Of a DNA stretch of 10,344 nucleotides, positions 4,501 to 5,042 are shown one piece after another (position 1 is the first letter of the stretch; the number at the start of each line of letters is the position of its first letter). The position numbers and the translations under genes were made by a program. This DNA is from a virus. Below the pieces are notes generated by a model. The model did no database searches and was not told the DNA's origin. It saw nothing but the letters and a program-made list of their open reading frames with translations. Location of the stretch: UHGV virus genome UHGV-1717511, one strand, 5' to 3'.

Positions 4501-5042
4501 AACGTTCGGCTGAGATTAACGTGCTCATGACACGGATGGCGGCTGAAATGGGCTTAGGTGATGAACTAATCCGCCCCAGCATTGGTATTAAGCCGAAAAT
4601 CATGATCATTCTGGACAATGCGAACGGCAATGATGCTCGAACCGGTTACTTTATGGAGAACGGATACGACGATTTTAAGGCCAAGCTATTGACGGCTGGA
4701 GATTTACGCATGGGCGATCTCTATGTCACAGGCGTTTGCAAGAAGGTTAAAGACAAAGAAAAAGACTACACCAAAGACGAGATCGGCCAGTTCACCGACT
4801 TTATGCGTGAAGAGATCAATCTGGTGCGTCCAACCTATGTGCTGACGTGTGGCAGCCGGGCGACATCGCTCTTCAACAACAAGAGCAAACCATCCGACCT
4901 GGTTGGACGCAAAGAGTATCTGCCGGAGCTGGATGTGACTGTTTTCTACGGATTTAACCCGAATATTTTGTACTTTCGCCCAGAGGAAGGCGAAAAGCTG
5001 GAAGCAATTCTTGCAGAGGTAGCGGAGACTATTAGCAAATGA
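1524..5042 (+). CDS. dnaE: DnaE-type DNA polymerase III alpha-like catalytic subunit, 1172 aa, with an extra C-terminal domain (about aa 1023-1172) resembling a degenerate UDG fold
   Basis: Seen: [71 protein letters not shown] (Pol III alpha palm signature), [32 protein letters not shown] and [32 protein letters not shown]. The first PHP motif lacks the canonical His pair ([11 protein letters not shown]). SD aagg is 9 nt upstream of the ATG. Assignment rests on established DnaE motifs recalled from memory. Confidence 0.9.
   Translation: [1172 protein letters not shown]

Follow-up and report, generated by a model that had tools for sequence, protein, structure and literature searches.

The 1172-residue C-family (DnaE-type) DNA polymerase encoded by UHGV virus genome UHGV-1717511 ends in a domain with the fold of a uracil-DNA glycosylase (UDG). 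The 10,344-nucleotide stretch of DNA analysed here, called the window throughout, is from an SSU5-like phage-plasmid of E. coli, and its dnaE open reading frame (ORF) lies at 1524..5042 on the plus strand, as placed by the ORF list, the translation and Pfam. The domain (amino acids 993–1172; 4500..5039, plus strand) is derived from UDG family 4, has lost the catalytic residues and stands in place of both the OB fold and the tau-binding C-terminal domain (CTD) of cellular DnaE. It is perhaps best seen, at about an even chance, as a pseudo-glycosylase of family-4 lineage that has been retained for a non-catalytic role at the fork, most likely the handling of template in the place of the OB fold.

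On what does the identification of the fold rest? Taken singly, the sequence gives matches to UDG family 4 that look weak but specific: its C-terminal 200 residues score 36.5 bits (E=3.8e-9) against TIGR00758, whose curated cut-off is 125.3, and 19.3 bits (E=1.2e-3) against PF03167, whose cut-off is 24.3, and the sequence matches of the domain in the PDB, four in all, are every one to a family-4 UDG. A word-indexed homologue search with the domain returned 9 near-identical fragments only, and HMMER, run exhaustively over 1.84 billion representatives, gave 144 relatives of it (clusters at 50% identity). The profile made from alignment A1, which comprises 51 of the 144, matches 4zbx over its full length with E=2.4e-21, 1l9g with E=1.2e-19, 1ui0 with E=2.8e-15 and UdgX with ~1e-13, so that, judged at the profile level, homology to family-4 UDGs is clear despite the sub-threshold scores of the single sequence. 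There is no conserved stretch of 7–10 columns in the domain alignment. Single-sequence AlphaFold2 modelling of the C-terminal 200 residues was unusable (pLDDT 41), and the model used instead is the one based on A1, with pLDDT 95.0 and pTM 0.91. In fold searches with this model the top ranks were all UDGs: the T. maritima enzyme scored 21.8, with 175 of 180 residues aligned and a root-mean-square deviation of 2.2 Å, and was accompanied by UdgX (19.8), family-5 UDGb (17.8), the UDG domain of phiLo PolA (14.5), MUG/TDG (~13) and vaccinia D4 (9.6). The model has the three-layer alpha/beta arrangement with central parallel sheet of the UDG superfamily (families 1–6), and the resemblance is confirmed as far beyond chance. 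An earlier note on this DNA, made from its letters and ORF translations, had proposed a C-terminal UDG-like fold on DnaE, and profile, model and fold searches bear it out; every protein string that it quoted is found in the translation where it was said to lie. It was also right that the domain is C-terminal, but the fold begins about 30 residues before the start it gave, at approximately amino acid 993 (window 4500), since the N-terminal helix is part of the fold.

Upstream of the domain, and likewise on the plus strand, the polymerase has a PHP domain (amino acids 6–175; 1539..2048; PF02811, E=3.3e-13), the Pol III alpha core and fingers (amino acids 309–740; 2448..3743; PF07733, E=1.3e-73, and PF17657, E=2.6e-44, with Pfam bounds of 309–571 for the core and 574–740 for the fingers) and a (HhH)2 or beta-binding-domain region (amino acids 866–955; 4119..4388; PF14579 HHH_6, E=1.6e-16) that aligns with E. 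coli alpha as far as residue 896 of the latter. Its TIGR00594 score of 631 bits, against a cut-off of 434, marks it as DnaE-type; with NF004226 it scores 679 bits, under the cut-off of 1002, and the match ends near amino acids 743–955. No OB-fold or tau-binding family among the Pfam and NCBIfam profiles matched the dnaE product. In cellular Pol III alpha, as known from the E. coli and Taq structures, the OB fold touches single-stranded template, and tau is bound by the CTD. The idea that the domain is an addition to DnaE holds in so far as an extra UDG domain is present, but that domain replaces the OB fold and CTD rather than being added to them.

For the state of the active site, the T. thermophilus (Tth) UDGa sequence, checked against 1ui0, was aligned with 114 domain sequences, namely the window copy and 113 relatives, and 71 of the relatives are DnaE-linked (41 as full-length proteins, 30 as C-terminal halves); the definition of pocket and catalytic residues follows Xia et al. 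2017 (PMC5387724). In the window copy none of the seven Tth UDGa positions that form the uracil pocket or take part in catalysis keeps its residue. The earlier note had both given the order of the family-4 motifs and taken the catalytic positions to be substituted, and the alignment agrees with it on each count: opposite GEGPG, YITN and HP(A/S) stand DNANG, YVTG and NPN, respectively. Degenerate motif A, LDNANGND (amino acids 1030–1037; 4611..4634, plus strand), aligns with Tth G40-E-G-P-G-E-E-E47; in place of G-E-(G/A)-P-G there is L-D-N-A-N at 1030–1034, the family consensus being x-D-x-P-(N/T/S). Here E41 has become D1031 (Asp in 100 of the 114), G42 N1032 (Asn in 6), P43 A1033 (Pro in 85) and E47 D1037 (Glu or Asp in 106), and the stacking Phe, F54, has become M1044. 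YVTG (amino acids 1067–1070; 4722..4733, plus strand) aligns with Y-I-T-N80 and keeps a Tyr found in 111 sequences and a Thr found in 112, and the uracil-reading N80 is replaced by G1070, at a position where Ala, Gly, Ser and Thr are commonest. The water-positioning N89 corresponds to E1079 and to a gap in most relatives. In degenerate motif B, GFNPN (amino acids 1143–1147; 4950..4964, plus strand), which aligns with M-F-H155-P-A, the His that stabilises the uracilate leaving group is N1145 (Asn 66, Ser 28, Thr 12 and His 5 of 114). Since not one of the 71 DnaE-linked relatives has Asn at the N80 position or His at the H155 position, the loss of both is old and fixed.

The cost of such changes in the Tth enzyme is considerable: H155S lowers k2 by more than 3 orders of magnitude and k2/Km ~2,500-fold (the discussion of that paper speaks of four orders), N80A costs >40-fold, F54A 17-fold and N89A 6-fold, and substitutions of E41, Asp among them, have a substantial cost (PMC5387724). 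With respect to uracil excision the domain is thus, to judge by its residues, a conserved pseudo-glycosylase, and the sequence argues against uracil-DNA glycosylase activity on single- or double-stranded DNA. C13, C16, C84 and C100 of Tth UDGa, which we take to be the ligands of its 4Fe-4S cluster, correspond to E1008, L1011, K1074 and F1090 in the window copy, i.e., to no Cys at any of the four. Cys is kept at three ligand positions (C13, C16 and C100) in 28 of the 71 DnaE-linked relatives (~40%) and at all four in none. The position of amino acid 1015 is His in 51 of the 114 aligned sequences, and in the SSU5 clade both the Cys ligands and this His are all lost; the retained three Cys together with the His could form a 3Cys+His cluster in the relatives that have them.

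The domain is under strong purifying selection and shows no decay. Its dN/dS against PhiR41_1, SSU5 and pJN2-26 is 0.014–0.079, similar to that of the polymerase core, and its identity to the SSU5 and Klebsiella pJN2-26 orthologues is 96–98%. Within it D1031, Y1067, T1069, K1073, E1097, P1103, G1110, G1128, D1137 and P1146 are 85–98% conserved, and K1076 is conserved in 83% of the aligned domain sequences. Its spread is considerable, with 942 plasmids in PLSDB carrying it, 63 Yersinia and 49 Salmonella records among them.

To what use might a polymerase put a glycosylase fold of this sort? For the domain we infer an accessory role in binding template DNA or a partner. The module would most likely sit at the place of the OB fold, where single-stranded template enters, and there guide or hold the template strand before it reaches the catalytic site, with processivity being supplied by the host beta clamp, bound via a QAELM-type motif just upstream. 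Template handling is favoured because of the domain order and of the analogy with other polymerase UDG modules: in cryo-EM of phiLo and YerA41 PolA the fused UDG is on the 5′ template strand and precedes the active site by ~5 nucleotides (Missoury et al. 2025, bioRxiv 10.1101/2025.03.26.645540), and the UDG of the mpox replicase has the same location (10.1101/2025.03.26.645540). The suggestion in the earlier note of a non-glycosylase sensor or DNA-binding accessory is consistent with the residues found.

The clamp-binding element of this scheme is in the linker between the HhH and UDG-like domains, where there is a conserved motif, R-x-(K/R)-D-Q-x-E-L-(L/M)-(P/G)-G (amino acids 966–976; 4419..4451, plus strand), with the core QAELM at amino acids 970–974 (4431–4445). 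In 87 sequences (the query and 86 relatives) R966 is found in 84, Q970 in 77, L973 in 68 and Leu or Met at 974 in 71. By its sequence and its place just past the HhH region, QAELM resembles QADMF of E. coli alpha (residues 920–924), the internal clamp-binding motif of that protein (PMC3201878). The likeness suggests QAELM as a candidate beta-clamp-binding motif, and the conservation of a motif of this type suggests that processivity would come from the host beta clamp and not from the UDG fold.

Several points weigh against template handling by a domain that has given up base excision. We place the domain relative to the template from domain order alone, and the candidate clamp motif fails to align formally with E. 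coli QADMF. The domain is mildly acidic, with net charge −3 and pI 5.2 (the family median pI is 6.6, and Tth UDGa has +5 and pI 9.1), which is not to be expected of a module for general DNA binding. Nor is there conservation of the arginine that family-4 enzymes carry in motif B. Several residues that line the pocket (D1031, the acidic residue at 1037, Y1067, T1069 and P1146) remain highly conserved, and the pocket may therefore still have something to bind. An Asn-Pro motif B is compatible with activity in family-2 enzymes (MUG/TDG), and loss of the His is for that reason not in itself proof of inactivity.

The acidity of the domain makes a protein-docking role a serious rival to a DNA-binding one, though we still regard it as unlikely. 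On that account the UDG fold would couple the polymerase to the helicase/primase of the element, to its gp32-like single-stranded DNA-binding protein (SSB) or to the tail of the host SSB, and would do so without touching DNA. It gains from the domain being where the tau-binding CTD would otherwise be, from synteny of dnaE with the gene for the gp32-like SSB (window 6892–7920) being kept even in a distant relative (locus L005), and from precedents for the fold as a binder of partners, in that vaccinia D4 binds A20 (PMC3201878) and PDB 3ufm has D. radiodurans UDG with the SSB C-terminus. What it fails to explain well is the pattern of conservation, as conservation is concentrated in what were the active-site motifs and in the K1073/K1076 segment, and not on an obviously new surface.

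Could the UDG-like domain instead grip duplex or template DNA and so itself make the polymerase processive with no sliding clamp? The idea has a history, as a hypothesis on SPO1 and T5 PolA and as a demonstrated property of vaccinia D4-A20. It was put forward explicitly for UDG domains fused to polymerases, and viral C-family polymerases were reported to have divergent C-termini in which no clamp motif was detected (Kazlauskas & Venclovas 2011, PMC3201878). There is also no clamp gene in the window, but the window is just 10 kb of an element of ~110 kb. The conserved Q-x-E-L-(L/M) at the internal clamp-motif position, by suggesting use of the host beta clamp, weakens the idea of an intrinsic processivity factor, as does the acidity of the domain, and it is considered distinctly improbable.

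About as doubtful, if not a little more so, is that the domain is still an enzyme, of altered chemistry or specificity (with a MUG/TDG-like Asn, or acting on a base other than uracil), that excises template lesions ahead of the fork as SP15-like PolA does. Active polymerase-fused UDGs do exist, conservation is high for the motif-A acid, the E47-equivalent acid, Y-x-T and the Pro of motif B, the small residue at the N80 position enlarges the pocket, and in the window copy Asn occupies the place of the MUG/TDG catalytic Asn and motif B reads N-P. However, the MUG-Asn position is Asn in only 6 of the 114, with close relatives reading DNANG, DTANG or DGANG, and the motif-B residue varies between Asn, Ser and Thr; as neither N1032 nor N1145 is at a conserved position, a MUG/TDG-like Asn mechanism was rejected as the leading explanation. 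Further, all seven Tth UDGa pocket residues are changed, where each single change is costly, from 6-fold for N89A up to about 10^4-fold for H155S, and the window shows no sign of an AP-endonuclease or PolX partner.

A related thought, to be taken as a long shot and drawn from the residues that line the former pocket, is that the pocket might serve a C-family replicase as a read-ahead sensor, flipping and recognising a template base or lesion either with no excision or with excision by new chemistry, ~40% of the relatives having in addition an unusual 3-Cys(+His?) Fe-S cluster. Enlarged though it is by the change of N80 to a small residue, the former pocket keeps a lining of invariant acidic, Tyr and Thr residues. 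If true, this would be the C-family counterpart of uracil read-ahead by archaeal PolB and of the PolA-UDG scanner for dU. As for an ordinary DnaE OB-fold or tau-binding C-terminus with UDG motifs by chance, which the earlier note had named as the finding that would overturn its proposal, nothing was found in its favour, though the single-sequence Pfam and NCBIfam scores are under their curated cut-offs, and with no such family matched and with the A1 profile matches and the top ranks of the fold searches all pointing to UDGs it is refuted, and its chance is practically nil.

Of the known systems, the closest is already published. The earlier note was wrong to suppose that a fusion of this kind was undescribed for DnaE-type polymerases, and a claim of novelty for it is unsupported because Timinskas et al. 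2014 (NAR 42:1393, Fig. 3) had reported the architecture, as ‘DnaEX’ with a UDG domain (PF03167) instead of OB fold and CTD, for Yersinia pestis and Salmonella copies. The window dnaE is of the same family and has the same PHP-Pol3-(HhH)2-UDG architecture, with nothing structural that differs; like DnaEX-UDG it is an extra, plasmid-borne copy from Enterobacterales with a PF03167-type domain for OB fold and CTD, and the Y. pestis plasmid copy compared is 97.8% identical to it in the domain. Timinskas et al. 2014 gave it one sentence, silent on catalytic status, Fe-S loss, selection, family spread and gene splitting, and Kazlauskas & Venclovas 2011 (PMC3201878) noted the C-terminus of the viral C-family polymerase only as divergent and left it unassigned. 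Precomputed Pfam annotation already has PF03167 on distant C-terminal halves, and PGAP names such split halves ‘uracil-DNA glycosylase’ (E. albertii) and ‘uracil-DNA glycosylase family protein’ (A. baumannii). Literature searches for SSU5 and uracil, or for a phage UDG-DnaE fusion, found nothing specific. Added to the record here are the residue-level loss of the catalytic set and of the Fe-S site, the loss of N80 and H155 throughout the DnaE-linked clade, the evidence of strong purifying selection, the family size, the candidate clamp motif and the recurrent splitting of the gene.

Other known systems are more distant. From family-4 UDGs (T. thermophilus 1UI0, T. maritima 1L9G, S. tokodaii 4ZBX) and UdgX the window domain differs in having LDNAN for GE(G/A)PG, Gly for N80, Met for F54 and Asn for H155, in the loss of N89, in having 0 of 4 Fe-S Cys, in being fused to a polymerase, in being acidic rather than basic and in its 36.5 bits as against 125.3. 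Phage A-family polymerases have UDG domains that are active in the SP15-like and SPO1-like and dead in the N4-like, but there the polymerase is of family A rather than C and the UDG is N-terminal where here it is C-terminal. The SP15-like PolA UDG, unlike the window domain, retains E53, P55 and H178 and acts as a read-ahead dU glycosylase, and the N4-like PolA has a UDG domain without catalytic residues (10.1101/2025.03.26.645540). Poxvirus D4/E4 in the E9-A20-D4 complex is by contrast a family-1 UDG, active, and a separate subunit bridged by A20 to a B-family polymerase.

The polymerase has a second unusual segment, a lineage-specific insertion of ~52 residues in the fingers region upstream of YQFNKSH (amino acids 743–794, WIDVELEDG...RVTASHP; 3750..3905, plus strand). 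The earlier note had seen an insertion relative to E. coli between the GKK motif and YQFNKSH, and it is real, but of ~52 residues rather than the ~40 it gave: in a fragment alignment to E. coli Pol III alpha (5fku), query residues 1–56 correspond to 685–740 and 103–267 to 735–896, and the distance from the GKK to the FNKSH motif is 93 residues here as against 41 in E. coli alpha. The insertion has no Pfam match, and no other part of the protein varies as much (76–84% amino acid identity to pJN2-26 and SSU5). Several relatives have a dnaE that is split at the C-terminal edge of the insertion, with a free-standing HNH_3/NUMOD4(/HTH) homing-endonuclease ORF, or a remnant of one, between the halves. 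Carriers of a split gene are Klebsiella phages vB_KpnS_p4727 and GArcari-2022b, an E. albertii plasmid, A. baumannii plasmids of ~110 kb and two distant metagenomic relatives, the loci being L002 3501–7753 (vB_KpnS_p4727), L003 822–5074, L009 792–5043, L008 1610–5462, L004 and L005. The N-terminal ORF is of ~787 residues and the C-terminal one, with the HhH and UDG-like domains, of ~390–420; 30 of the 113 aligned relatives are C-terminal halves of 370–460 residues, and the C-terminal halves among those listed begin ‘MKI/MKV...’. The splitting is met again in lineages that share just ~28–30% identity with the window copy in the UDG-like domain. The window dnaE is intact and unsplit, and the equivalent point in it is at about nucleotide 3890 (amino acid ~789/790), ~25 codons upstream of the FNKSH motif, which marks the split-intein site of cyanobacterial DnaE. 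Unlike the cyanobacterial case there is no intein in the split dnaE of the relatives, and two DnaE halves would therefore need non-covalent assembly. The nrdA gene of phage Aeh1 is reportedly a gene in pieces, split by the free-standing homing endonuclease mobE, and in these relatives an HNH/NUMOD4 gene likewise divides dnaE into two ORFs.

The origin of the window is apparent from its dnaE ORF, with nucleotide identity of 96.9% to Escherichia phage CMS-2020a, 95.1% to PhiR41_1 and 85.4% to Salmonella phage SSU5, and the UDG-fold domain encoded by E. coli plasmid NZ_CP014490 is 100% identical at the protein level. The window carries a replication module. A MoxR/CobS-like AAA protein is encoded at 108–1343, and a 67-residue ORF with a GTG start follows at 1346–1549, overlapping the start of dnaE by 26 nucleotides; it has no Pfam match, and SSU5 (SSU5_051) and an E. 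albertii plasmid have a hypothetical protein at the same place. Downstream of dnaE are a DUF4365 ORF of 332 residues on the minus strand (5216–6214), the gp32-like SSB, a 5′-3′ exonuclease (7930–8925) and a RecA-like protein of 357 residues (9194–10267). Immediately 3′ of dnaE, window 5035–6342 is a variable cargo island, a slot that amounts to ~130 nucleotides only in PhiR41_1 and that holds a 141-residue ORF and an AlpA-like regulator in SSU5 and hdeB/hdeA in an E. albertii plasmid. In the window the DUF4365 ORF lies within it, a 5′-deleted remnant of an SSU5_053 homologue is at 5058–5211, with 86% nucleotide identity to the 3′ end of SSU5_053, and a hairpin with T’s at ~5184–5210 resembles a bidirectional terminator. 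In PhiR41_1 the RecA-like gene has an annotated product of 780 residues and ~1.26 kb extra (L001 12687–13951) relative to window 9385/9383, with flanks 98–99% identical to the window; the extra segment has the appearance of an intein or other mobile element inserted in frame.

Clinical Enterobacterales very commonly carry SSU5-type phage-plasmids, which include the lineages of Y. pestis pMT1 and S. Typhi pHCM2 and bring a DnaE replicase of their own; the C-terminus of that DnaE illustrates how a C-family polymerase can work without OB and tau-binding domains. With UDG folds having been recruited independently to A-, B- and C-family replicases, the idea of a UDG at the point of template entry as a general accessory of viral replisomes is strengthened.
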